Shown: piece by piece, positions 37,000-57,783 of the stretch
How positions within the stretch are numbered: position 1 is the first letter of the stretch
Layout: every line of letters starts with the position of its first letter
Origin: Pseudobacteriovorax antillogorgiicola
GTDB taxonomy: Bacteria; Bdellovibrionota_B; Oligoflexia; Oligoflexales; RGVZ01
Reading direction: 5' to 3'
Length of the DNA stretch: 64,000 bases
Assembly: GCA_945898195.1 (NCBI GenBank)
Contig: CAMDHM010000003.1
Coordinates: 45,845 to 109,844, forward strand
The notes under the pieces: model-generated
Told to the model about the DNA's origin: nothing
What the model saw: the letters and a program-made list of their open reading frames with translations, nothing else
Database searches by the model: none
Position numbers and translations under genes: made by a program

Positions 37000-37005
37000 G
37001 ATCCC

Positions 37006-37305
37006 TCAGTCCTCCAGATCGTCGAGGCCGACATAGCGGATCTTGCAATCGCCGTTGATTTTAAGTTGGCAGCCAAGGCGTTCATGCTCATGGGCGCCGA
37101 AGCCTTGAAGGAAATCTTTTTCCTCAGTCGCGGCGGGCGACAGGTTTTCCATTCCGGAGACCACGCGGACCCGGCAGGTGCCACAGCTGCCAGATTTGCA
37201 GCCGAAAGTGATGTCACAGTCGACTTCAGCGGCAACGTCGAGCAAGGAAATACCTTCGTCGACGTCAACTTCAAGGTCTTCAGATGTAAAATAGATCAGT
37301 GCCAT
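37006..37305 (-). CDS. Plant-type [2Fe-2S] ferredoxin
   Basis: 99 aa from ATG 37305. The Cys pattern CKSGSCGTCRVRV...LGCQ (C-x4-C-x2-C-x~29-C) is present. The stop lies 6 nt before the metH start. Confidence 0.8.
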   Translation of the reverse strand: MALIYFTSEDLEVDVDEGISLLDVAAEVDCDITFGCKSGSCGTCRVRVVSGMENLSPAATEEKDFLQGFGAHEHERLGCQLKINGDCKIRYVGLDDLED

Positions 37306-37327
37306 GGGCAGGAACCTAATGCAAAAC

Positions 37328-37981
37328 TCACCAAAGGTGAACGCCGAACTCGTCGTGCAGGGTTCGTACAAGCTCGGTTAAAGGCAGGCCGACGACATTG
37401 CTGTAGGAGCCCTCAATGCGTTCGATCATATATGCGCCGATACCTTGGGCTCCATAGCTTCCAGCCTTGTCCATCGGCTCGCCAGTGGCAACATAGGCGG
37501 CGGTCTCGGCCGCGGACAGGGTCTTGATCGAAACCTGGGTTTCAACCTTGAATGCCTTGTCTCTCAGCGGGTTCGCGCCTTTTAATTCAACGAGACAAAC
37601 CCCCGAGATCACGGTGTGGGTCCGACCTGACAGCTTGCCCAACATGCCTATGGCGTCTGGCCGGTCGAGGGGTTTTTCCAGAATTTCGCCGTCAAGGACC
37701 ACGATCGTGTCACAAGTGATGATGATAGTTCGTTCGGCACTTATGGCCTGGCCTTCTCGGGCTAAAATACTTGCAACGGTAGCTTCCGCCTTTTCCCTAG
37801 CGTTTCGGATCGTGTAAGCGCCCGGTTCTTCACCTAATTTTGGCTTTTCTTCGACATCTGGCGACAGCACCTCGTGGGTTACGATGTGGCCTAAAAGCTC
37901 GCGCCGCCGAGGGGAAGAACTGCCCAAAATGATTCGCGGAATGCCAATCTCATTCTGGCATAAATGTTTCTGTTTTTGCAT
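37328..37981 (-). CDS. maf: Maf-family nucleoside triphosphate pyrophosphatase
   Basis: ILGSSSPRRRELL, CDTIVVLDGEILEKP, GKAGSYGAQG and VVGLPL are canonical Maf motifs. Confidence 0.9.
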   Translation of the reverse strand: MQKQKHLCQNEIGIPRIILGSSSPRRRELLGHIVTHEVLSPDVEEKPKLGEEPGAYTIRNAREKAEATVASILAREGQAISAERTIIITCDTIVVLDGEILEKPLDRPDAIGMLGKLSGRTHTVISGVCLVELKGANPLRDKAFKVETQVSIKTLSAAETAAYVATGEPMDKAGSYGAQGIGAYMIERIEGSYSNVVGLPLTELVRTLHDEFGVHLW

Positions 37982-38087
37982 GGCGTGGGGTGCCTCCCGG
38001 ATGACCGGCTAAATATGCTAAAATTTAAGGAAATTCCACTATTTCTGACTCTGGCTACGGGTCCGAGTCGAAGGCAGGCATACAAAC

Positions 38088-39053
38088 ATGGCGGAAGTCC
38101 GGGAAATTGCCTACGTCGCTGTCGGTGACAACCATGCGCGGCATGTCGCGCAAATTGTTGCATCACCAGATTGGCGGGTGTCTGCGACGCTGTTGACCCT
38201 AAACGCCGCGTTGCAAGGATTCGTGTCCGGCAAATACGTGGCGATCATGCTCGAGGATACGCAGGATTGTCCGGCGGCACTTCATATCTTGCGTGAATTG
38301 TGCAACCCAATCCTATATCTGGCCCCAATTATGATTCTGGTGGATAAAGAGCGCGAAAATGACGAGAGCTCTTTTGATATCCATTTTGGGTTTATTTGCA
38401 TGATGAAGCCGATCTCCAGAATGGTAGTGATTCAGACCTTTACTAATATGGTTAGGCGAATCAATTCGCCGTCTGGCATCGCGGCCCATGCTTGCTCCAA
38501 GGCTTACGGAAATGGTGAGGGTGTGGGACCAATTGAAGCGCTTCCGGGTTTCACGCAACTTGTGAAAGATCCGACGTTTGCGCATCGCCTTCCCAATTTT
38601 CGCGCACTCACCAAGCTTCGCAGTGTTGTGGGGGACACAGCGCGTGGTGGAATTCATATCGACGGGTTCAGACTGGCAGAGGCTGATCTATTGAGGCACG
38701 CCAAAAGCTTTCCTTCAAACATCGTTGCATATTTGATTTTATCCAGCCTTTACGCCGATTATTCCATGACGATTCTTGCGCGGCGTTTGGTTCAAAACGC
38801 GGCAGTTTCCGCGCAAAATTTCTCACTAGCAACGGCATTTTTAGCCCAGTTGCATCTCCTTCTTGGCGAAATGGAAGATGCCATCATCGTTCTTGGGCGC
38901 TTATTGAAAATGCGTTACTTACCCGAACAGACCAGCTTTTCTTTGGCTAAATTATATTGTTCGGTCGGCCGTGCTGATCAGGCAGATAATTTGCTCGCCG
39001 GACAAGCGGGTCGTTTTAACGCACTGAGAGCGGCCTGGATCGATACGAAATGA
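38088..39053 (+). CDS. Hypothetical protein: receiver (REC)-like N-terminal domain + TPR-like C-terminal helices
   Basis: N-terminus has the REC beta-alpha rhythm (IAYVAVGDN..., VAIMLEDTQDCP, IMILVDKE, ICMMKPIS with the conserved K-P), but the acidic pocket is degenerate (GDN instead of DD). The C-terminus has TPR-like repeats (LYADYSMTILARRLVQNA..., LHLLLGEMEDAIIVLGRLL, LAKLYCSVGRADQADNLL). Confidence 0.45.
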   Translation: MAEVREIAYVAVGDNHARHVAQIVASPDWRVSATLLTLNAALQGFVSGKYVAIMLEDTQDCPAALHILRELCNPILYLAPIMILVDKERENDESSFDIHFGFICMMKPISRMVVIQTFTNMVRRINSPSGIAAHACSKAYGNGEGVGPIEALPGFTQLVKDPTFAHRLPNFRALTKLRSVVGDTARGGIHIDGFRLAEADLLRHAKSFPSNIVAYLILSSLYADYSMTILARRLVQNAAVSAQNFSLATAFLAQLHLLLGEMEDAIIVLGRLLKMRYLPEQTSFSLAKLYCSVGRADQADNLLAGQAGRFNALRAAWIDTK

Positions 39054-40024
39054 GCGATAGCGAAGTTAAATCCCCGGTTGCAGATCTTCCGTCGGCCTCA
39101 TCTCCGGGTGGATTCCTGGCTTTTTGGGGTGTCCGTCATTCGCCCTTTTTTGGGAGGGCAGATGTCCCGGCCGCTTTTCTCTTAGAAAATCAGCGCAATG
39201 TTGCCGCGCGCGTCCTCATTGCCGCACAAGATGGCGCCCCGGTTGTGACAATAGGAGGTCCAGGCGGAGTCGGTTTAACCCTCCTTGCAAAATGGTTGTA
39301 CGAAGCGCTGCCCGAGGCATCGCATCATGCGATGCTCCTCGCGCCTGGTGGCCCGGGAACAGAACCAGCGGCGTTAACGACGAGAATCGCAGCATTTGGA
39401 GCATCTCGGCTAGGTGTTGCGATGGCTACGATGTGCCTCACCACCGAATCCATGCGCGATCAGATGATTACAATTGCGCCGGTTCTTGATGTTTTGCGTC
39501 GCGGACAAAAACGGCTGGCAATCATTTTCGATAATGCTGGATTGCTGTCGGGTGAGCCATGGGCATCCTATATTCTTTCGGTTATAAGGCAGGGTGAGTT
39601 GATTGATGGCGTGCTTCAGTTTTTTCTTTTTGGCCATGAGACTGAGCTTCAGAAAATCACATCATCTTGGCCGAGAGCGCTCGATGCTCGGACCATCAAT
39701 ATCGCATTGCTCGCGCCCTCGGAAGCCGATCAACGAAAATGGCTTGAGCACAGAATTATCTTGGCTGGAAGTGACGATGCCAGCGCCCGCAAAATATTTT
39801 CCAATGAAGCGGCTAAAGAGGCGATCTCTGGCTCAGGCAACAACCTAACTAAGCTGGGTCGAATAGCCGAGGCGGCGATGATCGAGGCCTTCATGGCTAG
39901 TTCTAGGCAGGTGGAGTCAAGGCACGTTGCAATTGCGTTGGGTCATCAAGACAGGCAGGAAGTTTCAGTCTCGCCGCTTGCAGTCCGTGGGACAGGGTTG
40001 TTGGATCTTTTGAAACCAATCTGA
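39050..40024 (+). CDS. ExeA/GspA-like AAA (AAA_22-type) protein with degenerate Walker A and B motifs
   Basis: FWGVRHSPFFGRADVPAAFLLENQRNVAARVL...VVTIGGPGGVGLTLLAKWL follows the ExeA pattern (fFgL...PF...p.flf.s..h.eal..L...tGe.GtGKT.l). The Walker A Lys is Leu. Walker B reads LAIIFDNAG (DN, not DE). ATGA overlap with the upstream gene. Confidence 0.55.
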   Translation: MSDSEVKSPVADLPSASSPGGFLAFWGVRHSPFFGRADVPAAFLLENQRNVAARVLIAAQDGAPVVTIGGPGGVGLTLLAKWLYEALPEASHHAMLLAPGGPGTEPAALTTRIAAFGASRLGVAMATMCLTTESMRDQMITIAPVLDVLRRGQKRLAIIFDNAGLLSGEPWASYILSVIRQGELIDGVLQFFLFGHETELQKITSSWPRALDARTINIALLAPSEADQRKWLEHRIILAGSDDASARKIFSNEAAKEAISGSGNNLTKLGRIAEAAMIEAFMASSRQVESRHVAIALGHQDRQEVSVSPLAVRGTGLLDLLKPI

Positions 40025-40042
40025 GAAGGAGTTCGTTGAACC

Positions 40043-43000
40043 GTGAGGATTACCAGGCGTCAGCAGAAAGCACTAACCCTCGTCGTCATTGTTATGGCCG
40101 CGATGTATATGCTCAACCTGGTTGTCGATAATCCATACAGCCACAGGTTTGTGCGCAATACTGTTGACCGTCTTCTTCGTGAATCCACAAACATTTCTGT
40201 AGATTACCGGGTAATGCGGGTCCAGATATTTCCCCCGGCCCTTGATCTCTATGGACTCGAAATTACCCGCACGGACGTTGCACGTGATGATCTGACGGCG
40301 GCCAATCGAAAAGTCTTAGGTGCCGCTCATATCCGAGCGACGCTTTCCATTTGGTCATTGCTGATAGGACAACCACAACTCGCCTCGTTCGAGGCGAATA
40401 ACACACGCCTTGACGTCGACGATCTGAGCAGTCTCGGTAAACTGGTCAAACAACAGGGACCGAAAAACAACTCGTCTGCCAAATTGGCGTGGCCTCCAGA
40501 ATTTTCAGTCCCCGTTCGGAAGGTGATTCTGCGTAATGCTCGAGTCTCACTGTTTCAGATGGGTGAGCTTCGGCCAATTCCATTAGCGCCAAATTCATTT
40601 CTGTTTAGCGGGGAGAGTATTGACCTAGCATTGACCGTTCAGGGCTGGGATAGCGCAGACCTATCTATTTCAGCGTCTGATGTTGCATTACGCGCTGGAG
40701 GTACAAACTATCTCACGGGCGCAAGGTTGGTTGCAGAGGCAACATACAATACAAATACAGTCGATGTAAAAATCGAAAAAATGGAGAGCTCCGGCTTGAG
40801 CGGGGATGGATCGGCGAGAATAAGGCTTGACCAACTTGTGCCACTGCCAAACCTGCGCATGATTTCCGGAGATGCAACACTGCAGTTAGCTGGCGATATT
40901 GGCCTTCTTGGCTCTATTCTTGAGATTCCAGAAACCGTCGGGCCTGCAAAGGCTTCTTTGATCGCAAAATTTGCAGTGCCGATAAATAGCAGCCTCGGGA
41001 AGGCGGAATTTAAATTGTCGGTAGATGCCGAATCATCGGGAGCGATATTCGGGGGATTTAAGCTTCATAATTTCAAAAGCCACCTCGGTATTGATGCCGA
41101 TCGAATTTCTTTTGACGACGTTCAATTAATTATCGGCAAAAAAAAATATGGAACAGGAAAGGGTGTGCTGCAGTTCGATGGGGCCGGACTTTATTCGTTT
41201 CAAGTTCAACCCGATGGATTGCCGCTAAGCAAACTACTTGACGTGTTCAATGTTAACTTTGATGCGTTTGATCTGGATATGACGGCGCCCGATCTCGTTC
41301 TTTCGGGGACGTCTGCACCATTTCGGATGAAGGCCTCCGCCACCATTGTCGCCAAAAATATTACCCTTCCAGCGACGCCATATGATCATTCAAAGTTTTC
41401 TGTCAGTCCAGACTGCGATTTAAACCTGCGCCTAGATATAAATTCACGACGCCTCCTGTTTGACGGGACACAAGGGGTTTGCCGTAGCTCTGGTGGCGAG
41501 ACATCCTTGGAGCTATCTGGGCCTATCTCCTTCGACGATAAATCCGGGATTGACCTCCTAATTAATGCAAAACGGGCCGATGCCAGCATTGGCGATTATT
41601 TTTCTCAAACGCCGATGCGCGGTGCCGGGAATTTCTCGGCTAGAGTTCATGGTCCCTACGACCGTGTTCTAATTTCAGGCGACGTTAATTTCACAGATTT
41701 TGAAGTTGGAAAAATGAATCTTGGTCGAATCTCAGCCAATTGGTCGGTTGATGGAAAGGTGGTGTCGTGGGAGAACCTGCGGATTGTTCCCGAAGAGGGT
41801 GCTGAGATCGTCCTTGAAAAGGGCTCTCTGGACATCGGCCGCAACATGAATATCAGCTCGCAAGTGCTGGCGGCTAATATTCCACCGTCATTGATCGATG
41901 GTTTTTTGCGTACGGTTAAAATCCAGCCGTCAATTGCATTTGGTGTGGAATCTGTTAGGGGCAGTATCAAGGGTCCACTAGGTGACCCGCTGTGGTGGGA
42001 TGTTGATGCAAACATCGCTCTTTTTGATCTGGATTATGAAGGAAAACGCATCGCGGATCATATTGCCGGAAAGATTCTTGCAAATCACGATGGCTGGCGT
42101 GTGTCTGAGGTAAATATTTTAAGTGGCGATCTCGCCATTGACGCTCGCTTGCGGCATGTTCGTGAGAAGATCCGGGAAAAAATCCGATCGGGCGGATCAG
42201 GCATTGCGGGTAATGATTCACTTGAGCTGGATGCCAAGGCCTATTCGGTGTCAAACCTCAAATCAAATCAGGATCATCTATCGCGTTTGCCCTATCTCGA
42301 AAAAAAATTAGCGGATTTGGGGATCAAAGGCTTCCTTGCCGGTGAATTGAAGCTTGGTGGTAAGCTTAAGGCCCTTGAGGGCGCGTTTGACGTATCGGTT
42401 ATGCGGCCAAAGTTGTTGGGGAGCGCGATAGCCCCATTGCGGGTCAAGGGCGTTGTTTCAGGGCGACGTGTGGAAATGATTTTGAATCATGGTGGAAATG
42501 CCCTCGAGGGTCGATTGTCTATCGATTCAGGGGCTCCGGGCACGTCATTTGAATGGTTTTTTACTGCCAATCGCTTGGATCTTCGTTTTCTGGGTACGCC
42601 ATGGTTCGCTAGTGACCCCAGGAATTATCTTTATATCAACGGATCTTGGATTATGCGTGGGCAGCTTGAAGATTTCTGGCGAAGCGCCGGCACACTGCGG
42701 GTCGCGGCAATCAATGGCAGGATGCTGCGCGAGGTGATGGGTGAGCAACGAGTGATGGACTTTAAGTCCGACTTACCCTTTGAAGCAGTATTTGAACGCG
42801 GGAATGTACGGTCAACTGGGACTAAGGATCTCGTGGTTTCCTCGCGACAGGCGCGGCTTCGAATGGTCTTGCAGGATGGCAATATTTTTCCTGGGCACAT
42901 GAATATTGGGGTAGACGGAAATCTAGAGATGTCTTTGCTCAGGGATATGATCCCGCAGTTTGAAAGCGCTACCGGAAAATTAGCATTCAAGGGGCAGATT

Positions 43001-44284
43001 AGCGGGAGCGTCAATGATCCTACGTATGGTTTTGAAATTGATGACGTCCGAGCCAATCCATTCACTGCAGGCTCGTGGGAGCCCGTGTCTATTGGACTGG
43101 CGGACTTTAGACCTCCTCTGCGCAACATTCGCCTCAAGGCGCTTTTGAAAGATGGTCTGGTCCAGATTGAATCTTTTAGCGCGTCAAAAGGCAGTGGTCG
43201 CCTGGATGGTGCTGGGACCTTTGCTTTTCGCGCCGGAGAAGAGGTAGGTGACTCAAGCATTGACATCCGGCTCGAAGATGCTGCGGTTGTATATCCCGTG
43301 GCATTCTTGAAGAGCTTTGAGTCGAATGTTAGCGGCAATCTTTCGCTGACTGGTAGGGGGCGACCCTATCGGCTTTCGGGAGACCTACAGGTTACGCGGG
43401 CTCGCTCAACCCGAGAGGTGGATCTGGGTGCCGAAATCCTAAATTCCATTCGCAAACAGTCGATTTCAATTCCCTCAGTAGCGACGGATCCTGTTCTTCA
43501 GTTCGATTTGACTGTCCGTGCAGATCAGACGGTAAACGTAAACAACCGTTTGATTCAGGCGTTGCTGAGCACCAATCTGCAGATTGGCGGCACCGATCAA
43601 CAGCCTTCGGTTCTAGGTCAGATAGATGTCGTTCGTGGTAAATTCGTCTATAAGCGTGATTTCTCAATTTCCCGGGGGATCATTTCATTCGATGATCCGC
43701 TTCGTGTTGATCCTACGTTGGAGATCACCGCAGTCAGCGAAGTGCAGAACTATCGGGTTTACATAAATATGTCTGGTCGTGCGTCGAATCCACGCGTGGA
43801 CTTTTCGATTGATCCGCCGACGCGACAGAATGGTAATGCCATTAGTAAAGTGGATATTCTTGTTTTACTTGGACGGGGCTCCCTGCCTGAAGAGCAGCAG
43901 GCCCTTGGCGAGACGCAGAACGTAGCGGCGACAGAAGCCCTTGGTTTTATTTGGGGTCAACTCGACGAGCCAGTCGAAAAGCTTTTTGACATGTCAGGAC
44001 AGAAGATCGTCAAGCAAGTATATTTTGATACCTATGCGTCACCTGATGGAAGGCCTCTTTTAAGGGTGAATCTACCGCTTAATCTCGGTAACGATTTGGA
44101 TGTGGTCCTTCGTGTCGATCAAGATCAGGCGATGAAGCTATCCAGCGAATTCGCACTGTCGGATAATATTTCTTTTGGGTTTGGTGTGGAGCGCCAAAGT
44201 CAGGACTCGGCAACGATCCAGACTCAGAGCACGATTCCAGCAGATACTGCAGCAGATTTGAAGTTTCGTTTTGCATTTCCTTAG
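40043..44284 (+). CDS. tamB: TamB/AsmA-like translocation and assembly module protein (DUF490 C-terminus)
   Basis: 1413 aa, GTG start, N-terminal TM anchor (ALTLVVIVMAAMYMLNLVV) and long beta-rich repeats. The C-terminus has the DUF490 pattern (GQIDVVRGKFVYKRDFSISRGIISFDD...LEITAVSEVQNYRVYINMSGRASNPRVDFSIDPP...ISKVDILVLLGRG). Confidence 0.8.
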   Translation: MRITRRQQKALTLVVIVMAAMYMLNLVVDNPYSHRFVRNTVDRLLRESTNISVDYRVMRVQIFPPALDLYGLEITRTDVARDDLTAANRKVLGAAHIRATLSIWSLLIGQPQLASFEANNTRLDVDDLSSLGKLVKQQGPKNNSSAKLAWPPEFSVPVRKVILRNARVSLFQMGELRPIPLAPNSFLFSGESIDLALTVQGWDSADLSISASDVALRAGGTNYLTGARLVAEATYNTNTVDVKIEKMESSGLSGDGSARIRLDQLVPLPNLRMISGDATLQLAGDIGLLGSILEIPETVGPAKASLIAKFAVPINSSLGKAEFKLSVDAESSGAIFGGFKLHNFKSHLGIDADRISFDDVQLIIGKKKYGTGKGVLQFDGAGLYSFQVQPDGLPLSKLLDVFNVNFDAFDLDMTAPDLVLSGTSAPFRMKASATIVAKNITLPATPYDHSKFSVSPDCDLNLRLDINSRRLLFDGTQGVCRSSGGETSLELSGPISFDDKSGIDLLINAKRADASIGDYFSQTPMRGAGNFSARVHGPYDRVLISGDVNFTDFEVGKMNLGRISANWSVDGKVVSWENLRIVPEEGAEIVLEKGSLDIGRNMNISSQVLAANIPPSLIDGFLRTVKIQPSIAFGVESVRGSIKGPLGDPLWWDVDANIALFDLDYEGKRIADHIAGKILANHDGWRVSEVNILSGDLAIDARLRHVREKIREKIRSGGSGIAGNDSLELDAKAYSVSNLKSNQDHLSRLPYLEKKLADLGIKGFLAGELKLGGKLKALEGAFDVSVMRPKLLGSAIAPLRVKGVVSGRRVEMILNHGGNALEGRLSIDSGAPGTSFEWFFTANRLDLRFLGTPWFASDPRNYLYINGSWIMRGQLEDFWRSAGTLRVAAINGRMLREVMGEQRVMDFKSDLPFEAVFERGNVRSTGTKDLVVSSRQARLRMVLQDGNIFPGHMNIGVDGNLEMSLLRDMIPQFESATGKLAFKGQISGSVNDPTYGFEIDDVRANPFTAGSWEPVSIGLADFRPPLRNIRLKALLKDGLVQIESFSASKGSGRLDGAGTFAFRAGEEVGDSSIDIRLEDAAVVYPVAFLKSFESNVSGNLSLTGRGRPYRLSGDLQVTRARSTREVDLGAEILNSIRKQSISIPSVATDPVLQFDLTVRADQTVNVNNRLIQALLSTNLQIGGTDQQPSVLGQIDVVRGKFVYKRDFSISRGIISFDDPLRVDPTLEITAVSEVQNYRVYINMSGRASNPRVDFSIDPPTRQNGNAISKVDILVLLGRGSLPEEQQALGETQNVAATEALGFIWGQLDEPVEKLFDMSGQKIVKQVYFDTYASPDGRPLLRVNLPLNLGNDLDVVLRVDQDQAMKLSSEFALSDNISFGFGVERQSQDSATIQTQSTIPADTAADLKFRFAFP

Positions 44285-44312
44285 TCTCCTTTTTTAGGGA
44301 ATTCATTAGATC

Positions 44313-47300
44313 GTGAGAAGCCTTCACAAAATCGTATTTTTGCTCATGATCATTGTCGGGTGTCCGGCAGGGATTGCGTTGTCTGCGCCGTGGGAGCTTG
44401 CGTCGGGCCTAGTATCTGAGGCGGCGCAACGGAATTTGCGCATGCGTCATCCCGAAGTCGAATCCCCGGGGGACCTAATGGAGCTCGTCGAGGAAATTGG
44501 GCGTAAAGCCGATTTTCTGCAAATTTCCGCATCATTCAGCCCGTCAGCTTCAGGCGGCGTGTTTATAATTTCCGCAAAACACGCCCAGATCGTTGGGGAA
44601 GTGAATATCGATAGCTCATTGCGGGATTTGAGGACGCAATTGAAGTCTATTTCTCAAAATGTTGAGGGACAGGTTGACACGGCTAGCATGCGTGCCAAGG
44701 TCCAGACAGATTTCATGAAATATTTGAAACTACGCGGCTACTATGAAGCACAAGTTACCATCAACCCCGTGGAGAATGAATCATACGTAGTTTATGAGGC
44801 TCGGGTTTCCGAGGGTGAGCCATGCATTATTGAAAAAGTTGATGTGGGAATTAAACTGCCGTTCGGGTTTCCGCAGGGTATCTCGCCAGGCGATATTTGC
44901 GACGAGGAATCTATCCGGCAGGCCGTCGACCGATTGTTGGAATCAGCGCGGCGGCGGGGCTACAACCAGGCTCGAATTGAATTGGCAGGGTTGACGCTAC
45001 ACCCGAATAAAAACACAGCGACCGTGCACATTGGTGGCGTGCTTGGAAAGCGGATTCGTTACCAGATTCGTGACCGATCAACAACGCTCAGAATCGACGA
45101 CCTTTTTGCGCAGGATGAACTTTCCGGTATCGATCCGAGCATTGTTGGTCCCGATGCAATGGCTGCCGAACTTACGAGGCGTTATCGCTCGAAAGGGTTC
45201 AGTGATGTTGCTGTCACTGGGCCAAAGCAGGAGCGCCCGAGCGATGATGAGATCGTTTACGTTTTTGATGTCGATCCGGGGACCCAGTATATTTTGCATG
45301 GAATTAATTTCGAGGGTGGCCAGCGATTTTCTTACCGTGAATTGATTGGTTTGATGAACATCAAGGGTTTTTGGCAAAACACCTCGGCCCCACTAGATCC
45401 TGATTTGATTCGATCCGGAGTCGAGGCGATCAAGGCAAAATACCAGGCGGCAGGGTTCTGGGATGTCGTCGTTCGTGATCGTCCGCCCTCTCGTGACAAG
45501 GAGTCTGGCGGTGCACAACTTACGATATCGATTAGTGAGGGCGATCAAAGAATTCTTGGTTCTATTCAGATTCAGGGGGTAAAGGCTTTCAGTCCCCATG
45601 AACTATTGGAGCTTCCTGAGGCGGACGGCGTTTTAAGTGTGGACTCTCCCCTGGACCGATCATCCTTATTTAAGCTTCAGCGGCTAATCAAAACAAAGTA
45701 TTTCGAGTCAGGATACCTATATTCTGACGTCAAATTGGACATGACTTTCCGGGCGGATCGAAAAAAAACCATAGTCGCTGTTGCCGTCGAGGTTTTCGAG
45801 GGAGCCCGGGTCAAGATTGGCAATATTTCTGTTATGGGGTTGGCGCGAACCAAGTCGAAAGTGGTGATGCGTGAGCTCCGCTTTGAAAGCGGTGACTGGT
45901 ACGATCCAGGAAAAATAACTGAATCACGGCGCGCACTCGTTACTTTGGGTCTTTTTCGGTCGGTGCAAATACTGCCTCTAGATCGAAATGCCCTTGCCGA
46001 TGAAGAGCCTGAACTGGATATCCTTGTGGATGTTCGTGAAGGCAAGGCGGGCAATGTCTCATTTGGTCCAGGGTGGAGCCTTGCTGATGGTTATCGTTTC
46101 AACACTGAGGCCACCTATTCGAATATCGGGGGCGTCGGCCGTCAGGTTTCTCTGCGTGCCGGGTTTGATCAGGAACTACGGCAGCCCGCGGTTAACAATA
46201 AAACACTTGTCGGGCGTAATATCGGCGCAGGATATGTCGAACCATATATCTTTGACTTGCCTGTGGATTTCAAAATTTCAGCAAACAACCAGGCTAGATC
46301 TACGGAGACAGCTTGGGAGATTAGTCGTGTTGGAGAAGTTGCCTTAACGCGCAAGCTACGCTGGCTTGGGGCCGACTCTCATGCATCAATGTTCTATGGG
46401 CAAAAATTCACGCGTCAGGAAAGTGATGTGGATCAACAGTCGGCACTACTGTCCGATGATGTTCGTGTTGGCTTCGTGGGGATTCGGGCCAACATTGACA
46501 AGCGTAATGATTTGACGTGGCCAACCAGTGGTTACACATTAATTCCTGAATTGAGTCTGGCCCGATTTGACCTTGGTGGGGACCTTCGGTATCTCCGTTC
46601 TGAGGTGGGATATGCGCGGTATTTCGGCCTTGGTGCGCGTTTTGTGCTTGCACTTGGGCTTTCGGTGACGACCTTTCATGACGTTGAGCGCAGAGGTGAG
46701 GACCGGTCTCTAGACCTTCTTCCTCCGTCCGAACGGATCTATGTGGGCGGCGCCGACACGGTCCGGGGCTTCCGTGAGAGATCGCTTGGACCGGTAATCC
46801 GAAGCCCATTCTTAAGTCAAGACGGAGTTTGGGACTGTTCATTTCATAATTCAAAATCGGGCGGCTCTCGTCGGGTGGTGCTTAAGGTTGAAGGACGTTA
46901 CCGGATTAGTGAGACCCTGGCGGCCACAGGTTTCTTTGATAATGGGAACGTTTTCTTTAGCAAAGACGAGGCAGACAGGTTTGCCCGTGCATTTTCCGAG
47001 CCTATTGAAGTTGGCAGCATTAGCGGCCAATGCGACTCAAAATCGGCATTGCGCTCAATTGAGGACAATAATGGTTATAACCTTGATGATTTGGGAAAAC
47101 ACCCTGATCGATTGTGGAATGATCATTACTCAAGTTTTGGGTCGAGTATAAATTTTTTGACCGCGATTGGATCGGTGAATCTCGCCTATGGGATTCCGCT
47201 TCATGAGCCAAGAACCGAGACCTGCAGTCAGAACGAGTCGTTATGTTTTCCACGCGGAAAACAATTCGGATATTGGTTGACGCGTGGGGAAATTCATTTA

Positions 47301-47321
47301 AACGTCGGCGCGCGCTTTTAA
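44313..47321 (+). CDS. Omp85-family outer-membrane protein assembly factor (BamA/TamA-like) with POTRA repeats, 1002 aa
   Basis: Signal peptide, several POTRA-like units (EGEPCIIEKVDVG, ILHGINFEGGQRFSYREL, GSIQIQGVKAFSPHELL, GNISVMGLARTKSKVVMREL) and a Bac_surface_Ag barrel (GNVSFGPGWS, YVGGADTVRGFRERSLGP, terminal ...NVGARF). Confidence 0.8.
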   Translation: MRSLHKIVFLLMIIVGCPAGIALSAPWELASGLVSEAAQRNLRMRHPEVESPGDLMELVEEIGRKADFLQISASFSPSASGGVFIISAKHAQIVGEVNIDSSLRDLRTQLKSISQNVEGQVDTASMRAKVQTDFMKYLKLRGYYEAQVTINPVENESYVVYEARVSEGEPCIIEKVDVGIKLPFGFPQGISPGDICDEESIRQAVDRLLESARRRGYNQARIELAGLTLHPNKNTATVHIGGVLGKRIRYQIRDRSTTLRIDDLFAQDELSGIDPSIVGPDAMAAELTRRYRSKGFSDVAVTGPKQERPSDDEIVYVFDVDPGTQYILHGINFEGGQRFSYRELIGLMNIKGFWQNTSAPLDPDLIRSGVEAIKAKYQAAGFWDVVVRDRPPSRDKESGGAQLTISISEGDQRILGSIQIQGVKAFSPHELLELPEADGVLSVDSPLDRSSLFKLQRLIKTKYFESGYLYSDVKLDMTFRADRKKTIVAVAVEVFEGARVKIGNISVMGLARTKSKVVMRELRFESGDWYDPGKITESRRALVTLGLFRSVQILPLDRNALADEEPELDILVDVREGKAGNVSFGPGWSLADGYRFNTEATYSNIGGVGRQVSLRAGFDQELRQPAVNNKTLVGRNIGAGYVEPYIFDLPVDFKISANNQARSTETAWEISRVGEVALTRKLRWLGADSHASMFYGQKFTRQESDVDQQSALLSDDVRVGFVGIRANIDKRNDLTWPTSGYTLIPELSLARFDLGGDLRYLRSEVGYARYFGLGARFVLALGLSVTTFHDVERRGEDRSLDLLPPSERIYVGGADTVRGFRERSLGPVIRSPFLSQDGVWDCSFHNSKSGGSRRVVLKVEGRYRISETLAATGFFDNGNVFFSKDEADRFARAFSEPIEVGSISGQCDSKSALRSIEDNNGYNLDDLGKHPDRLWNDHYSSFGSSINFLTAIGSVNLAYGIPLHEPRTETCSQNESLCFPRGKQFGYWLTRGEIHLNVGARF

Positions 47322-47336
47322 TGTCGGGAGATAATT

Positions 47337-49421
47337 ATGAATCAAGCTAATTCATTGGATGCCTATTTTTCAGGTGAAACTCATGAAATTAGAGTGGCAC
47401 TCCTTGCGGGGCTTGCCTCCTCGGGAGAGTGCCTACCCCCGGACGTAGTTGTTGGCCTGCTCCGACTGGAATTGCCATCCGCAGAAAAGGTTTTGCTTCT
47501 TGAAGCCGTCTCTTTAGCGGACCCATTGTCTTTTGAGGATTTTGTTTTTGATCATATGATTCACTGGCCCCAGGATGTTGCGGCTAAAGCATTGCGGATC
47601 TGGGCTGGAAATCCTGCGTGCACTCGCTGGAACGAGCTTTCTCGGTTGGCTGCACTGCCTGGTTTGCCTCAGCGAATTCTGTATACAATTCTTGACGTTT
47701 CGGCTCGTGCGCCCGATGAATTGCTGACGAAGGCATGCGTGGATTCAGCGATGCATGCCGACGGCGGTGGCCTATCGCCGGCATTCAATTCCCTTATGTT
47801 CGTTCGGATGTTGCAGAGGAAGATTCAGGATGATCGGGTTTCGGTATTGGTCCGTAAAATCTGCGAAAAGTCGGCTCACGAATTTGTCCCGGAGGACAAG
47901 TCAGCCTTCGCCGCGTGTCTTTATTTGTGGTGTTTTCATAAGGACGAATTTGACCATTGGGACTCAAGGATTCCGGCAGGTTCGCCTCAATCTATACTGC
48001 GCCTCCTGCCCAATGATCGCAGCGTTAGTTGGTTAGGAGGGGGCTTAAAAAGCCGCGCTACCAAGGAAACGACGGCTGGGCGTCAGAAGAACCTGCAGGG
48101 ACCATCAGATGGCAATGGTGCAGGGGCTTTTTTGGGCTGGTTGCTCAGTAAGGACGTGTCGGCAAGTCGGATCAAAACTCTAGTGTCTGGTGTGTGGCAA
48201 CAGTTGCTGGTTGTTGGCGATGTCGATGAACCTGATGAACGTTGGACGGCTGCAACGAATTCTTTACGAGTAAAGACCGGCATTTACCGAATTGCTTGTA
48301 TCCGGGCATTGGGCAAGCGGCGTGGGAGTGATCTTGCTGTACTGAAGCTTCTTGATTATGTCCGTTCGGGGGATACGAATGAGCTGACCGAGGTGGCTCG
48401 AGCTCTCGGTTCTATTGCATCTCCGCGCGCAATTCAGGAATTGATTTCCATGATGTCGCGGCACAATGCAGGAGTTGACTTGCAGATTGAGATCTCGGTG
48501 GTCCTAAAGAATCAGAAACTTGACGATCATCATGATGCGATTGGCGCGGCCCGTTTGCATGTAGCTTCGCTGCTCAAAAGTAGTCGAGGAAAAAATAATG
48601 CCAGCGAAGGTTTGGCCGAGGTTTTGGAGGCGTTGCAAGATCTGGTCGATGCTCCCGTTGCCCTTGTTGCTCCCGTTGGGGCAGTTGATGCAAGGATGAT
48701 GGACGAAGCCCTGGCGAAATCAATTCCACATTATGAAAGGCTTTCGGCCGAGGTAAAGCGGGCACTCAGGACTGCCTGGTATTTTCATCGTCAGATTGAG
48801 CTCGGGGGTGCGGCGGCATCGATTGATCTAAGTCCGGTGATAGATATGCAATATAAAGGCATGGAACTTTTGTTCCGCGAATATTTCGAAGATGTTTGCG
48901 GGCGCCTGATTCAGCAGGGCACTATTCAGCGGAAACTGGACCTGATCGGATACTCTCGTCCCATTCAAGATAAGATGGACGAATTCGAGAGCTATATTGC
49001 GGCAATGCCGGTCATCAATACAATCCCATTTTTTAGTAAGTTTAAGATGCGAAAAATGCTGATGGCACTATGCCAGTTTAAACCGGGGCGTCGGTTTACC
49101 TTGGATGGTCTAAAGGCGTTTGGTCTATTCTTTTTTATTTTTGGGCGGGGCGAGTGCCGGTATGGTTTGGGCGGAGTCCTTCCTATTGTGCCGAATCCCT
49201 TCAAGGATCAGGCTGCACTTGCCGACTTCTGTCGTTTGCTTCATGTGTTTCAGGATTTCAGAAACCGCGCGGCTCATGAGGGGTTTCACCCGGATGCCGC
49301 TGCTGATATCAAGGGGATCTGGTGTAATACGGCTGAAATTGTCCAGCTGGCCCATGCTCTGCGCCCAGTTTTGAGTCGACCAATCGTCGAACCCGGCCTT
49401 GTCCGGGAGCGCGCTAGCTGA
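47337..49421 (+). CDS. Hypothetical HEAT-repeat protein with C-terminal HEPN-like domain (Rx4H motif RNRAAH)
   Basis: 694 aa and cytoplasmic-looking. Central PBS-lyase/HEAT-like repeat (VARALGSIASPRAIQELISMMSRHN). The C-terminal helical region ends in VFQDFRNRAAHEGFHP, which fits the HEPN Rx4-6H signature. Confidence 0.5.
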   Translation: MNQANSLDAYFSGETHEIRVALLAGLASSGECLPPDVVVGLLRLELPSAEKVLLLEAVSLADPLSFEDFVFDHMIHWPQDVAAKALRIWAGNPACTRWNELSRLAALPGLPQRILYTILDVSARAPDELLTKACVDSAMHADGGGLSPAFNSLMFVRMLQRKIQDDRVSVLVRKICEKSAHEFVPEDKSAFAACLYLWCFHKDEFDHWDSRIPAGSPQSILRLLPNDRSVSWLGGGLKSRATKETTAGRQKNLQGPSDGNGAGAFLGWLLSKDVSASRIKTLVSGVWQQLLVVGDVDEPDERWTAATNSLRVKTGIYRIACIRALGKRRGSDLAVLKLLDYVRSGDTNELTEVARALGSIASPRAIQELISMMSRHNAGVDLQIEISVVLKNQKLDDHHDAIGAARLHVASLLKSSRGKNNASEGLAEVLEALQDLVDAPVALVAPVGAVDARMMDEALAKSIPHYERLSAEVKRALRTAWYFHRQIELGGAAASIDLSPVIDMQYKGMELLFREYFEDVCGRLIQQGTIQRKLDLIGYSRPIQDKMDEFESYIAAMPVINTIPFFSKFKMRKMLMALCQFKPGRRFTLDGLKAFGLFFFIFGRGECRYGLGGVLPIVPNPFKDQAALADFCRLLHVFQDFRNRAAHEGFHPDAAADIKGIWCNTAEIVQLAHALRPVLSRPIVEPGLVRERAS

Positions 49422-49491
49422 TAACCTTCTCGGCGAACAATCCGGTCTTTTGGCCTGGAATCGCTTATGCTTACCGCAGGTTGGGGTGGAC

Positions 49492-50220
49492 ATGACTGGC
49501 AAAGTTGCTTTGGTTACTGGGGCATCACGAGGCATCGGTGCTGCCTGCGCAATCGCATTGGGGAATGCCGGCTTCAAAGTAGCGGTCCATTACCGAGGGC
49601 ATGAAGATAAGGCCCTTGCAGTCTGTGCCTTGATTCCTGGGTCGCGTGCCTTTCGCGCAGATCTATCTGATGCTGCGGCCTGCCAGGGTTTGATCAAGAC
49701 GGTCGCCGCGGAAATGGGTGGACTTCACGTTCTGGTCAATAACGCTGGCGTCGCTATCGATCAGATTCTGCCCCTTGCGAAGCCGGACGATTTTGACTTG
49801 CTTCTTAATACCAATTTGAAGTCAGTATTCCTTTTATCTAAATTTGCATCGCGCCCGATGATCCGCCAAAAGTGGGGGCGAATCATTAACTTGGCGTCGG
49901 TTGTCGGTTTTACCGGTAACCCCGGCCAAAGCATGTATGCGGCAACAAAAGCCGGCATTGTGGGGTTCACTAAATCAATCGCTGCAGAGTTGGCTCCATT
50001 TGGGATCCTTGCAAACTGCGTAGCGCCTGGCTTCATTGAGACTGATATGACGGGTGCGCTGCCTGAGGCTGTCAAAGAAGCTATGTTGGGGCGTATTCCC
50101 CTGAAAAGGTTCGGCGCGGTCGAAGATATTGCTGCGGCAGTTGAGTTTCTTTCGTCGGATAAATCATCTTATATTACTGGTTCCACGATCCATGTGAACG
50201 GCGGAATGTACACCAATTGA
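49492..50220 (+). CDS. fabG: 3-oxoacyl-[ACP] reductase FabG (classical SDR)
   Basis: Start at ATG 49492 (MTGKVALVTGASRGIG). Also NNAG, the catalytic S...YxxxK (YAATKAG) and HVNGGMY. The ORF-track start at 49399 adds 31 non-homologous residues. Confidence 0.85.
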   Translation: MTGKVALVTGASRGIGAACAIALGNAGFKVAVHYRGHEDKALAVCALIPGSRAFRADLSDAAACQGLIKTVAAEMGGLHVLVNNAGVAIDQILPLAKPDDFDLLLNTNLKSVFLLSKFASRPMIRQKWGRIINLASVVGFTGNPGQSMYAATKAGIVGFTKSIAAELAPFGILANCVAPGFIETDMTGALPEAVKEAMLGRIPLKRFGAVEDIAAAVEFLSSDKSSYITGSTIHVNGGMYTN

Positions 50221-50230
50221 CGGGAATGGC

Positions 50231-51280
50231 ATGTCGGTCGACCAAAAGAGAAAATCCTCAATATTTTTGACAGCGATGGGACACTACGTTCCCGATAATG
50301 TTCTCGATAACAATTTTTTTGACAGTTTGAACATTGGTTCCGATGCTCAATGGATTGTTGATCGAGTCGGCATTCAAGAGCGACGCAGTGTTCTCCGTCC
50401 TGAAGAAATTCGCGCCCTTCGTTTTGGCGAAACGACTCGAGACGAACTAATTGCCGCTGGGCGCATCATGACGTTTGGTCAAATGGGTGCAAGGTCCTGG
50501 GAACTCGCCATGACCCGTTCAGGACTAAAAACCGAAGGCCTGCACGCTGGCGCTGTTATCGGTGGCACTTCAGTTCCGGATAGCGATATTCCTTCCCACG
50601 CATGTTATGCCGCACGCGATTCAGGATTGAAGACCGGATTTGCCTACGACACCAATTCGGCATGCAGTACCTTTGCCGTGCAGATCCAAACGCTGCGCGG
50701 GGCTTTCGCAATTGGAAGCGCGACAACTGGCGCCATTTTTGGCGCAGAACGATACACGACCCGGGTCGACTATTCGGATCGGAAGGGATGCATTCTATTT
50801 GGTGACAGTTCCTATGCGGCTTACGTTGAAAGTGTGCCGCGCGGAAAGTGTCTTGAAGTGGTCGACACTTTGGTCGAATCCTCTCCTGAGGGTGCTGATA
50901 CAATTCGTATGCTCGACGGAAAGTCATTTGAGCAAGATGGTCAAGCGGTACAGAAGTTCGCAATCCTTAAAACGGTGAGCGCAGCTCAGGCCATTATGGA
51001 GCGCAATCACCTTCTCATTGCAGATGTAAACTGGTTTGTCGGTCACCAGGCGAACCTGCGAATGCTGATGTCTGCTGCGCAGAGGATCGGCATTGATCCC
51101 GAACGACACCTTTATAATGTTGCGTTTCACGGTAACCAGGGCGGAGCCGGAGCCCCGGTAACGATGTCGCAAAATTGGGACCGTTATCGTGACGGCGATA
51201 TTATTGTTATGTCCGTTGTTGGGTCTGGTTTAACCTGGGGCTCGGTAGTGTTCCGGGTTCACGACAAGGGTCACGATTGA
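50231..51280 (+). CDS. FabH-like 3-oxoacyl-[ACP] synthase III (KASIII family)
   Basis: The Cys-His-Asn triad contexts are present: TNSACSTFA, FVGHQANLRM and FHGNQGGAG. C-terminal GSGLTWGS is also present. Confidence 0.8.
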   Translation: MSVDQKRKSSIFLTAMGHYVPDNVLDNNFFDSLNIGSDAQWIVDRVGIQERRSVLRPEEIRALRFGETTRDELIAAGRIMTFGQMGARSWELAMTRSGLKTEGLHAGAVIGGTSVPDSDIPSHACYAARDSGLKTGFAYDTNSACSTFAVQIQTLRGAFAIGSATTGAIFGAERYTTRVDYSDRKGCILFGDSSYAAYVESVPRGKCLEVVDTLVESSPEGADTIRMLDGKSFEQDGQAVQKFAILKTVSAAQAIMERNHLLIADVNWFVGHQANLRMLMSAAQRIGIDPERHLYNVAFHGNQGGAGAPVTMSQNWDRYRDGDIIVMSVVGSGLTWGSVVFRVHDKGHD

Positions 51281-52422
51281 ACGCGCCGATCGAAGGAAAG
51301 AGATGGATCTTGATGACCGGTGCCGCCGGCTTGATCGGTCGTCATCTGCGCTTTAGCCTTAACGATCAATATCGCTTTTGGTGTATCGATAGCCGTCCCG
51401 TGAATGACATGTACATGGGCGACATTGCCGATATCTTGGATATCGGCAGTTTGACGACACTGACGGATGTCTGGGATCGGCGTCCCGAGATCACTGCTAA
51501 TTTGCATGCGGTCATTCATCTGGCTGCCTACTACGATTTTTTAAATCTGCCGAATCCGGCGTATCAGCGGGTCAATCAGGGCCTTGAACGCTTACTGATG
51601 CTGATTTCCAAAGATGCCCCAGGTGAGTGTGTGGTGGTTTCTGCTGGCAGCATGACAGTCCTTGCACCAGTCCTGCCCGGGCAACGGCAAAATGAGCAAA
51701 GCCCCCGAGCCGGACTCTGGGAGTTTCCCCGGAGCAAGCTTCAAGCCGAGCGATTGTTGGATCAGACGTCGATCAGGCAACCGGTGGTGCAGTTAATTCT
51801 TGCTTGTGTGTATTCAGATTGGTGCGAGTTTGTTCCGCTTTTCAACTGGATCGAAATTTGTGGGACGCCTGGTCCCGAGAAACATTTCTATCCTGGTGCG
51901 CCGACCCGCGGGCTAACTTACTGCCATATCGAAGACGTCGTCCGTGCGTTCGTCCTTGCAATCGAAAAGTTTGGATTGGGTGGTGAATTAATTCTGCTGG
52001 CGGAGGCTGATCTACTGCAAAAGCGCGCTAAGAAGTCTGTTGAGGTCGCGATGGAGGGCGGGGTGAGGGAAAAGTTCTTGATCGGGCAGCCCCAGTCAAT
52101 GAGTTATCGCGAAATTCACGCGCGTGCCTGCACCGCATTCCAAGGCAAGGCAATTCCCCTTATTCAGTTGCCGACCGAGATTGCGACGATTGGTGCTTGG
52201 ATCATGGATTTGTTTGGTCGGATTATAAAAAAACCGGCCTTTATCAAGCCATGGATGATAAAATTTGCCGGACAACATTTTTCATTTGATCTGACCTGGT
52301 CTCGAACCCGCTTGGGGTGGATTCCGAAGAAGTCCATCCAACAAGATTTTAATGGGCTCATGCTTCGGGCCATTCGTGAGCGTGATCATTGGGTAAAGAT
52401 CAACGCTTTGCGGCCGCGATGA
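51277..52422 (+). CDS. NAD-dependent epimerase/dehydratase-family (extended SDR) protein
   Basis: Rossmann motif ILMTGAAGLIGRHL near the N-terminus. TTG start overlaps the KASIII stop (TTGA). 381 aa. Confidence 0.65.
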   Translation: MNAPIEGKRWILMTGAAGLIGRHLRFSLNDQYRFWCIDSRPVNDMYMGDIADILDIGSLTTLTDVWDRRPEITANLHAVIHLAAYYDFLNLPNPAYQRVNQGLERLLMLISKDAPGECVVVSAGSMTVLAPVLPGQRQNEQSPRAGLWEFPRSKLQAERLLDQTSIRQPVVQLILACVYSDWCEFVPLFNWIEICGTPGPEKHFYPGAPTRGLTYCHIEDVVRAFVLAIEKFGLGGELILLAEADLLQKRAKKSVEVAMEGGVREKFLIGQPQSMSYREIHARACTAFQGKAIPLIQLPTEIATIGAWIMDLFGRIIKKPAFIKPWMIKFAGQHFSFDLTWSRTRLGWIPKKSIQQDFNGLMLRAIRERDHWVKINALRPR

Positions 52423-52545
52423 TTCGCCAGCTATCGCAGGCTGGATAAAGTGTTCCCCCAATAGCGACAATAGTCGCAGGAAGGCGCTTGTAATAGTGCG
52501 CGGCCAATAAAAAAGGCAAAGCAACCAGAGTGATTTGAAGGAGCC

Positions 52546-57769: not shown

Positions 57770-57783
57770 GCGTTCCCCGGCCG

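Follow-up and report, generated by a model that had tools for sequence, protein, structure and literature searches.

A probable Oligoflexales version of the TPR-ATPase-tamB-omp85 operon of Myxococcus and Bdellovibrio

Operons that encode a cytoplasmic protein with tetratricopeptide repeats (TPR), in some cases an ATPase, and the envelope proteins TamB and Omp85 have been published for Bdellovibrio bacteriovorus and Myxococcus xanthus (PMC3983030, PMC7668184). The presence of a cytoplasmic TPR regulator of polarity and pili (SgmX/Bd2492) in one operon with TamB and an Omp85 protein with seven POTRA domains has been a puzzle since 2014. Here we analyze a five-gene cluster, g1 to g5, that contains tamB and omp85. 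It is located in a 64,000-nucleotide (nt) stretch of DNA from Pseudobacteriovorax antillogorgiicola (assembly GCA_945898195.1, contig CAMDHM010000003.1, positions 45,845 to 109,844 of the forward strand), referred to below as the window. A first-pass annotation of the window had pointed out the cluster and knew of no described system of such composition. The published operons show that this was wrong, and the cluster is probably their counterpart in the Oligoflexales.

In B. bacteriovorus, bd2492, bd2494 and bd2495 are co-transcribed, as shown by reverse-transcription PCR (Milner et al., PMC3983030). Bd2492 is a cytoplasmic TPR protein of 353 amino acids (aa) that binds MglA, bd2494 encodes a DUF490/TamB protein, and the product of bd2495 is an essential Omp85 protein with seven POTRA domains (PMC3983030). 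Bd2492 is also named SgmX1 and has a role in MglA binding and prey invasion (PMC3983030, PMC11025332). The M. xanthus locus consists of MXAN_5766, encoding the TPR protein SgmX, MXAN_5765, encoding a putative secretion-type ATPase, MXAN_5764, encoding a DUF490/TamB protein, and MXAN_5763, encoding an Omp85 protein (PMC3983030, PMC7668184, PMC7519303). SgmX acts as an MglA-GTP effector and activates type IV pili (PMC7668184, PMC7519303). Mercier et al. described Mxan_5766-63 as a ‘putative operon of four genes’ (PMC7668184), and a preprint treats the sgmX operon as reaching MXAN_5761 (bioRxiv 10.64898/2026.08.28.747804).

Operons of tamB and bamA, including those with tamB before bamA, are also known (Heinz et al. 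2015, PMC4494059), and complexes of TamB with BamA have been established for Borrelia (PMC5582053, PMC11361582). In such systems the C-terminal DUF490 region of TamB is expected to bind the POTRA domains of BamA (PMC4494059, PMC5582053, PMC11361582). Our search for literature linking TamB with ExeA, or Oligoflexia with BamA, found nothing relevant. The mentions of TamB and of Bdellovibrionota in the Lipocone paper are unrelated to the cluster.

Gene order and its conservation

The cluster is formed by five co-directional open reading frames, all located where the first-pass annotation had placed them:

g1, 38088..39053, + strand, 321 aa: cytoplasmic REC-like (residues ~1-126) and TPR protein, in the position of Bd2492/SgmX
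g2, 39050..40024, + strand, 324 aa: ExeA/AAA_22-type P-loop protein, Walker A motif without Lys, Walker B motif hhhhDN
g3, 40043..44284, + strand, 1413 aa: TamB (AsmA-like, inner-membrane-anchored, periplasm-spanning)
g4, 44313..47321, + strand, 1002 aa: BamA-like Omp85, 6-7 POTRA domains, 16-strand-type barrel
g5, 47337..49421, + strand, 694 aa: cytoplasmic HEAT/ARM solenoid (~1-440) and conserved C-terminal helical domain (~450-685)

The junctions between these genes are tight. The stop codon of g1 and the start codon of g2 overlap in a 4-nt ATGA (39050-39053). The 18-nt gap between g2 and tamB holds a GAAGGAG Shine-Dalgarno sequence, and tamB starts with GTG. The tamB/omp85 and omp85/g5 gaps measure 28 nt and 15 nt, and a spacer of 106 nt (37982-38087) separates g1 from a divergent maf gene. 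These distances were read directly from the sequence and are as annotated earlier. A consensus scan found no terminator-like hairpin in any cluster junction; for the region as a whole, its site counts are close to shuffle expectation. The operon-like organization proposed in the first-pass annotation holds.

The locus thus has a cytoplasmic TPR gene 5' of tamB and of a gene for an Omp85 with about seven POTRA domains, and an AAA_22-type gene in between. It has the same four-part order as the sgmX locus of M. xanthus, namely cytoplasmic TPR protein, ATPase, TamB and Omp85. Unlike g1, which is 321 aa long and has a REC-like head, SgmX has 1060 aa and no reported REC-like domain. Unlike the putative ATPase at the MXAN_5765 position, g2 has lost the Walker A Lys. 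The Bdellovibrio operon is from the same phylum, and the gene for its small cytoplasmic TPR protein (353 aa, versus 321 aa for g1) likewise lies 5' of tamB and of the gene for a 7-POTRA Omp85. However, no ATPase gene has been reported between its TPR gene and tamB, and no HEAT protein has been reported to belong to it. The adjacency of tamB to the gene for a BamA-type Omp85 is shared with the TamB-BamA operons of TamA-less bacteria such as Borrelia, where tamB is also immediately upstream. Borrelia-type operons have no genes for cytoplasmic TPR, ATPase or HEAT proteins, and Borrelia BamA contains five POTRA domains whereas g4 contains 6-7.

To follow the gene order in other genomes, we compared nine close loci, all in metagenome-assembled genomes of Oligoflexales/Bdellovibrionota, and distant loci found through distant homologues of g5. 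The nine close loci are fully collinear with the window. Their flanks are collinear as well, with UbiD, MetH, Fer2 and Maf genes upstream and a FabG gene downstream. Because the entire region including MetH, Maf and UbiD is collinear, these loci (L002-L010) were not counted as independent evidence for functional linkage.

The distant loci carry the argument. In six of them (L011, L012, L013, L015, L016 and L018), a gene for a ~320-aa TPR-type protein, an AAA_22 gene, tamB and omp85 follow one another in this order. After omp85 they contain a minus-strand gene for a secreted ~320-aa protein, g5, and FabG and/or β-ketoacyl-ACP synthase III (KAS III) genes. Profiles built from the window clade match the upstream genes as homologues of g1 and g2 in L013, L015, L016 and L018 (26-68 bits). 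The outer neighbors differ among the distant loci and include TonB/ExbBD/TolB-like genes, biotin genes and others. TamB identities among the distant lineages and to the window are 26-37%. The g1-g2-tamB-omp85 order therefore recurs in at least five lineages with divergent TamB and different outer flanks. The 4-nt g1/g2 overlap recurs on the P0012 contig and in L002 and L013, and g5 is linked to tamB/omp85 in 6 of 8 distant loci. The conserved linkage of the flanking genes to tamB/omp85, on which the first-pass annotation had staked its proposal, is kept across deeply divergent lineages.

The spacer upstream of g1 contains a further conserved element:

candidate promoter/leader block, 38013..38049, + strand: 37 nt in the maf-g1 intergenic spacer, including an extended -10-like element

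The extended -10-like element TGcTAAAAT (TGCTAAAAT) is present at 38016-38024, as the earlier annotation had noted, and sits within this near-invariant block. The block reads ATATG[C/A]TAAAATTTTAATAAATTCCACTATTTCTGAC and shows almost no variation among eight orthologous loci, where g1 identity is only 47-58%. This conservation strongly supports the -10 candidate of the first-pass annotation. Its downstream half occurs a single time in the window. We infer that the block may act as a promoter. A sigma-70 scan, in which promoter-like counts equal shuffle expectation, missed the -10-like element because there is no -35 element. The five translationally tight genes thus lie behind a near-invariant extended -10-type block, and their order is kept over a very long evolutionary distance.

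A variable hairpin follows the block in the 5' untranslated region (window 38013-38075). Its stems differ between several loci yet stay complementary, for example GACTCTGG/TCCGAGTC versus GACCGCC/GGTGGTC. In single-sequence folds, this hairpin is missing from L006 by deletion and is weak in L009. RNAalifold on a MAFFT alignment gave no consensus leader structure, while the single-sequence folds show the variable hairpin. The 37-nt block matches no Rfam family, and no Rfam match was obtained at E values up to 1 across 37000-53000, which covers the leader and the junctions. A riboswitch or other known RNA in the leader or junctions was dropped on these grounds. In M. xanthus, a suppressor point mutation (mimA) maps to the 5' untranslated region of the sgmX operon and indicates that this region is of regulatory importance (PMC7668184).

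Domains of the five proteins

The product of g3 is TamB, as first annotated. PF04357 matches residues 1045-1412 with an E value of 1e-33 over essentially the full model (positions 3-381 of 381), and a weak YhdP match is found at the N-terminus. A single N-terminal hydrophobic anchor is formed by residues 10-28. The protein therefore combines a C-terminal DUF490 region with an N-terminal membrane anchor, and exposes only about nine residues to the cytoplasm.

The earlier call of a very large Omp85 for g4 is borne out by its 1002 aa, and the order of tamB before this gene is confirmed. The protein matches POTRA (6e-38) and Omp85 (8.6e-27) models. Six consecutive segments of about 90 residues match POTRA, three strongly and three weakly, and the N-terminal segment is unmatched, giving 6-7 POTRA domains. 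A signal peptide is present, and the translation contains a VRGF loop-6 motif. Residue 323 aligns with residue 172 of E. coli BamA. The best-scoring family is BamA (TIGR03303), at 249.6 bits and under the equivalog cutoff of 297.15, whereas NF047950, the TamA equivalog, reaches 87 bits (cutoff 625). The best matches among Protein Data Bank (PDB) sequences are BamA at 1e-24, with TamA at 5e-7. By these comparisons, g4 is classified as BamA-like and not as TamA. It differs from the partner in the canonical TAM system, TamA, which has three POTRA domains and is encoded upstream of tamB. We also considered a TamL-like lipoprotein, given a lipobox-like IVGC (window 44313-44390). This was rejected, since the Cys is absent from 10/10 orthologues.

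No transmembrane segment or signal peptide was found in g1, g2 or g5, and the first-pass description of these three proteins as cytoplasmic-type stands. An AlphaFold2 model of g1 (pLDDT 89, pTM 0.86) shows a (βα)5 domain followed by TPR-like helical repeats. The secondary structure of this domain is E5-10/H17-24/E29-36/H38-47/E52-56/H63-77/E81-85/H87-100/E103-106/H111-126, with pLDDT above 90. Foldseek matches the model to the TPR proteins MamA and OGT and to the response regulator PorX, and TPR matches are also found in the sequence. The REC-like/TPR call in the first-pass annotation agrees with these results, and the N-terminal domain has a CheY-like fold.

The receiver features of g1 are partly altered. 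In the family alignment, D14, D57 and K107-P108 are invariant. An hhalign comparison with CheY places D57 and K109 in register, with a weak probability of 12%. The first acidic residue of the acidic pocket is replaced by Gly, and the end of β4 lacks a Thr or Ser. There is no match of g1 to PF00072 (Response_reg) even at E = 10. The REC-like domain may be a pseudo-receiver.

The g2 protein belongs to a degenerate branch of the ExeA-type P-loop proteins. Its AAA_22 score is 21.7 bits, under the cutoff of 27. In place of an intact GxxxxGK[ST], its Walker A motif reads GGPGGVGLT, and the Lys position is occupied by L, S, T, A, M or I in 12/12 clade members. The 12-member family alignment gives GxxGxG[LSTAMI]T for Walker A and hhhhDN for Walker B. 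In orthologues from deeper lineages (L013, L015 and L016), the canonical GxGK[ST] and DExx-type motifs are intact. These orthologues score 34-53 bits with AAA_22, which is above threshold, and match the ExeA-type model TIGR03015 at 1.6e-14 to 2.2e-26 over nearly the full length of the model. The g2 profile of the window clade detects these distant orthologues. All versions of g2 contain a low-complexity linker and then a C-terminal LxxL[LF] tail, which is LLDLLKP in the window. The Walker A motif is also lost in L012 (159-1097).

The first-pass annotation had compared g2 to ExeA/GspA, assembly factors for outer-membrane secretins. At the superfamily level this is correct. ExeA/GspA-type ATPases (COG3267, including the XrtA/PEP-CTERM-associated TIGR03015 and MshM) have the AAA_22-type P-loop fold in common with g2, and the distant g2 orthologues match TIGR03015 as described. 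ExeA/GspA-type ATPases are often paired with TPR proteins, and the gene adjacent to g2 also encodes one. The hallmarks of secretin assembly are missing, however. The maximum Kyte-Doolittle score of g2 over 19 residues is 1.42, indicating no transmembrane segment, no PG_binding or other Pfam domain was found in it, and the cluster contains no secretin or GspB gene as a partner. The analogy to an assembly factor for Omp85 is weak because g2 lacks a transmembrane segment, a periplasmic peptidoglycan-binding domain and, throughout its clade, the Walker A Lys.

The AlphaFold2 model of g5 (pLDDT 86) is all-alpha. Foldseek matches its HEAT/ARM part to the AP2, importin and alphaRep solenoids. In the family alignment, the C-terminal domain (C-domain) contains an invariant RNRAAHEG at residues 642-649. 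RNRAAH (642-647) is of the Rx4-6H type, and distant paralogues, too, share its invariant R, N and H. A search with a C-domain profile collected 207 representatives among 1.84 billion proteins. Orthologue-type proteins of 700-1000 aa account for 109 of the 207, at E < 1e-30. The weaker relatives are HEAT proteins of 880-935 aa, a few short proteins and one Response_reg fusion. D, R, DG, R, Q, RN and H are invariant across all C-domain relatives.

The C-domain has no Pfam match, and its profile found no PDB sequence at E values up to 10. When its members were scanned with Pfam individually, Csm6_HEPN was matched in 1/11, with E = 0.12. The HEAT part of the earlier HEAT/HEPN-like call is upheld by these data. 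The HEPN part was drawn from the Rx4H motif, and neither a hidden Markov model nor a structure match to HEPN was obtained for g5, the whole-model Foldseek search being dominated by the HEAT part. The C-domain is 44-48% identical over an evolutionary distance at which TamB identity is 27-31% and Omp85 identity 30-39%. This higher identity argues for strong constraint on the C-domain, which probably has an enzymatic or tight-binding function.

Some relatives of the C-domain are found in other settings. In P0224 (418 aa), the RNxAAH domain is fused to a canonical Response_reg receiver. In P0208, P0213 and P0217 (884-935 aa), it ends longer HEAT proteins whose genes do not adjoin tamB/omp85. P0217 comes from the same Joint Genome Institute (JGI) sample as a 337-kb contig that bears the full cluster. 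It was set aside as an independent link to tamB, as its context shows an unlinked, paralogue-type HEAT protein.

Possible roles of the cytoplasmic proteins

We favor the reading that the cluster represents the TPR-ATPase-tamB-omp85 operon in its Oligoflexales/Bdellovibrionota form, and consider it probable. As is known for these families, TamB would be anchored in the inner membrane through one N-terminal helix, span the periplasm and dock there on the POTRA arm of the BamA-type Omp85. TamB and Omp85 would together form a trans-envelope module for outer-membrane growth, with a role in phospholipid delivery and/or β-barrel insertion. TamAB and the Borrelia TamB-BamA complex are precedents for such a module. 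The adjacent FabG- and FabH-like genes would fit a theme of lipid supply, and PMC8593681 includes the proposal that TamB has a role in lipid transport.

The roles of g1, g2 and g5 are the least certain part. These proteins are predicted to stay in the cytoplasm and would not serve as ExeA-like assembly factors for Omp85. Most likely, they are scaffolding or regulatory proteins made in a fixed ratio with the envelope module. This is suggested because they have no access to the periplasm, and because g2 has no transmembrane segment, peptidoglycan-binding domain or catalytic Lys. The g1 protein would be an SgmX/Bd2492-like adaptor that may read a phospho-signal or a partner signal and may localize the machinery, for example to the pole. 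The g2 protein, translationally coupled to it, would be an ExeA-type P-loop partner that is dead in nucleotide hydrolysis. Its LxxL[LF] tail is, speculatively, a candidate ligand for the TPRs of g1 or the HEAT repeats of g5. The g5 protein would provide a HEAT platform with a conserved, possibly HEPN-type, effector domain.

Several observations weigh against this picture. The equivalence of g1 and g2 with Bd2492, SgmX and MXAN_5765 appears to be positional and at the domain level only. Inactivation of mxan_5765 or mxan_5764 left S-motility unaffected (PMC7668184), and insertions in MXAN_5765-5761 caused no developmental defect (bioRxiv 10.64898/2026.08.28.747804). Even in M. xanthus, it is therefore unproven that the TPR gene is functionally coupled to its neighbors. 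In L014 and L019, 2 of the 8 distant loci, g5 is apart from tamB/omp85. These two probably represent one lineage, given their common neighbors. The loss of the Walker A Lys could mean that g2 decays rather than acts as a scaffold. The 45-64% identity and many invariant columns in its clade argue for selection rather than decay.

The linkage that persists across at least five deep lineages, the tight junctions with the g1/g2 overlap, and the distant g2 orthologues with intact Walker motifs in TIGR03015/AAA_22 would also be expected if g1, g2 and g5 were dedicated accessory or assembly factors of the Omp85/TamB envelope system, with g2 acting as ExeA/GspA does for secretins. We regard this as unlikely. 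All three proteins are cytoplasmic and TamB offers them only about nine residues, g2 has neither a transmembrane segment nor a peptidoglycan-binding domain and its clade lacks the Walker A Lys, and the targets of the studied TPR homologues SgmX and Bd2492 are MglA and type IV pili (PMC3983030, PMC7668184, PMC7519303). The last point also bears on the broader suggestion of the first-pass annotation, an accessory or regulatory module for Omp85/TamB. The conserved linkage fits it, whereas the known action of the homologues in the TPR position is not on Omp85/TamB. Another explanation is that the gene order is inherited without functional coupling, with housekeeping or regulatory genes residing next to tamB-bamA in a slowly rearranging region. 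The collinearity of the nine close loci throughout (UbiD, MetH, Fer2, Maf, cluster, FabG), the separation of g5 in L014 and L019, and the lack of a common phenotype among the Myxococcus mutants (PMC7668184) are compatible with it. However, the order persists at 26-37% TamB identity with changed outer flanks, the genes are joined by start/stop overlaps and gaps of 15-28 nt, and co-transcription is shown in Bdellovibrio (PMC3983030). Mere inheritance of the order is thus rather improbable.

A split STAND-like defense or abortive-infection system, whose TPR sensor, NTPase and HEPN-type nuclease effector flank tamB-bamA by chance, is very improbable and was rejected. The g2 orthologue in L015 matches NB-ARC and nSTAND models, that in L011 matches NACHT, and g5 has the invariant Rx4H (RNxAAH) motif and the one faint Csm6_HEPN match. 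On the other hand, PADLOC gave no match for g1, g2 or g5 at E values up to 0.1. The genes are vertically conserved like core genes rather than patchy like island genes, the C-domain of g5 is more conserved (44-48%) than TamB/Omp85 (27-39%) over the same distance, and the NTPase is catalytically degenerate in the window clade.

A further reading is that g1, g2 and g5, the last possibly with a HEPN-type RNase domain, form one cytoplasmic signaling complex, which would couple a polarity or phospho-signal to the production, placement or activity of the TamB-BamA machine and to fatty-acid supply. We consider this doubtful. If true, Bdellovibrionota, and possibly Myxococcota as well, would have a cytoplasmic control layer for outer-membrane growth, which would account for the location of sgmX-type genes within tamB-omp85 operons. 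Handles on a possible link from polarity or signaling to outer-membrane lipid and protein delivery are offered by the RNxAAH motif, the C-terminal tail of g2 and the leader. Without such a link, the cluster is a well-conserved operon of an already described type.

The core composition of TPR protein, ATPase, TamB and Omp85 is already known. New are the REC-like head of g1, the degenerate ATPase g2, g5 and its C-domain, the co-conserved FabG/FabH-like genes and the near-invariant leader. The window shows that the TPR/TamB-Omp85 arrangement, including the ATPase-like gene, is ancient and under selection, with TamB identity below 40% between lineages. The Oligoflexales add to it a REC-like input domain, a HEAT protein whose C-domain is better conserved than TamB, and fatty-acid synthesis genes.

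Neighboring genes

The co-directional run extends beyond 49421, where the first-pass annotation ended the cluster, and continues after a 70-nt gap with three genes:

FabG-like 3-oxoacyl-ACP reductase, 49492..50220, + strand: 70 nt after g5; TIGR01830 281.8 bits (cutoff 297.75); Pfam adh_short
KAS III (FabH)-like ketosynthase, 50231..51280, + strand: ACP_syn_III and ACP_syn_III_C; NF006829 194.7 bits (cutoff 249)
NAD-dependent epimerase, weakly HpnA-like, 51277..52422, + strand: Pfam Epimerase 8e-13; TIGR03466 7e-11, far under cutoff

The FabG- and FabH-like genes accompany the cluster in distant lineages, too. Every close locus, as well as L011 and L013, has a FabG-like gene after g5, and in L018 such a gene is nearby but inverted. 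KAS III-like genes are located near g5 in L013, L015, L016 and L018. The epimerase gene is the last in the co-directional run, and its adjacency to the cluster was not seen in the distant loci. Its membership of the unit is uncertain. A gene for an HpnB-like family-2 glycosyltransferase (52546-53757, - strand; TIGR03469 at 3.7e-41, under cutoff) converges with it. Judged by these matches, the pair hints at hopanoid- or lipid-associated sugar chemistry.

The minus-strand secreted gene between omp85 and g5 is a feature of the distant loci, where it encodes a protein of ~320-370 aa, and is absent from the window. Its positions are:

minus-strand secreted gene, - strand: L011:8719-9687, L012:8668-9783, L013:8942-9913, L015:8948-9919
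minus-strand secreted gene, - strand: L016:8839-9789, L018:8877-9947, L014:7940-8923, L019:8933-9907

Its product has no clear Pfam domain and only a faint Reg_prop match. In L014 and L019, the gene stays divergently paired with g5, away from tamB/omp85.

Two further loci in the window were recorded. A gene for a Tim44-like domain protein (32463-33344, - strand; PF04280 at 3.6e-28) is flanked by the UbiD-like gene (30609-32450) and the MetH-like gene (33454-36999). At 56414-59814 (+ strand), a 451-aa open reading frame that matches no Pfam family is directly followed by a gene for a TonB-dependent receptor-like barrel protein.

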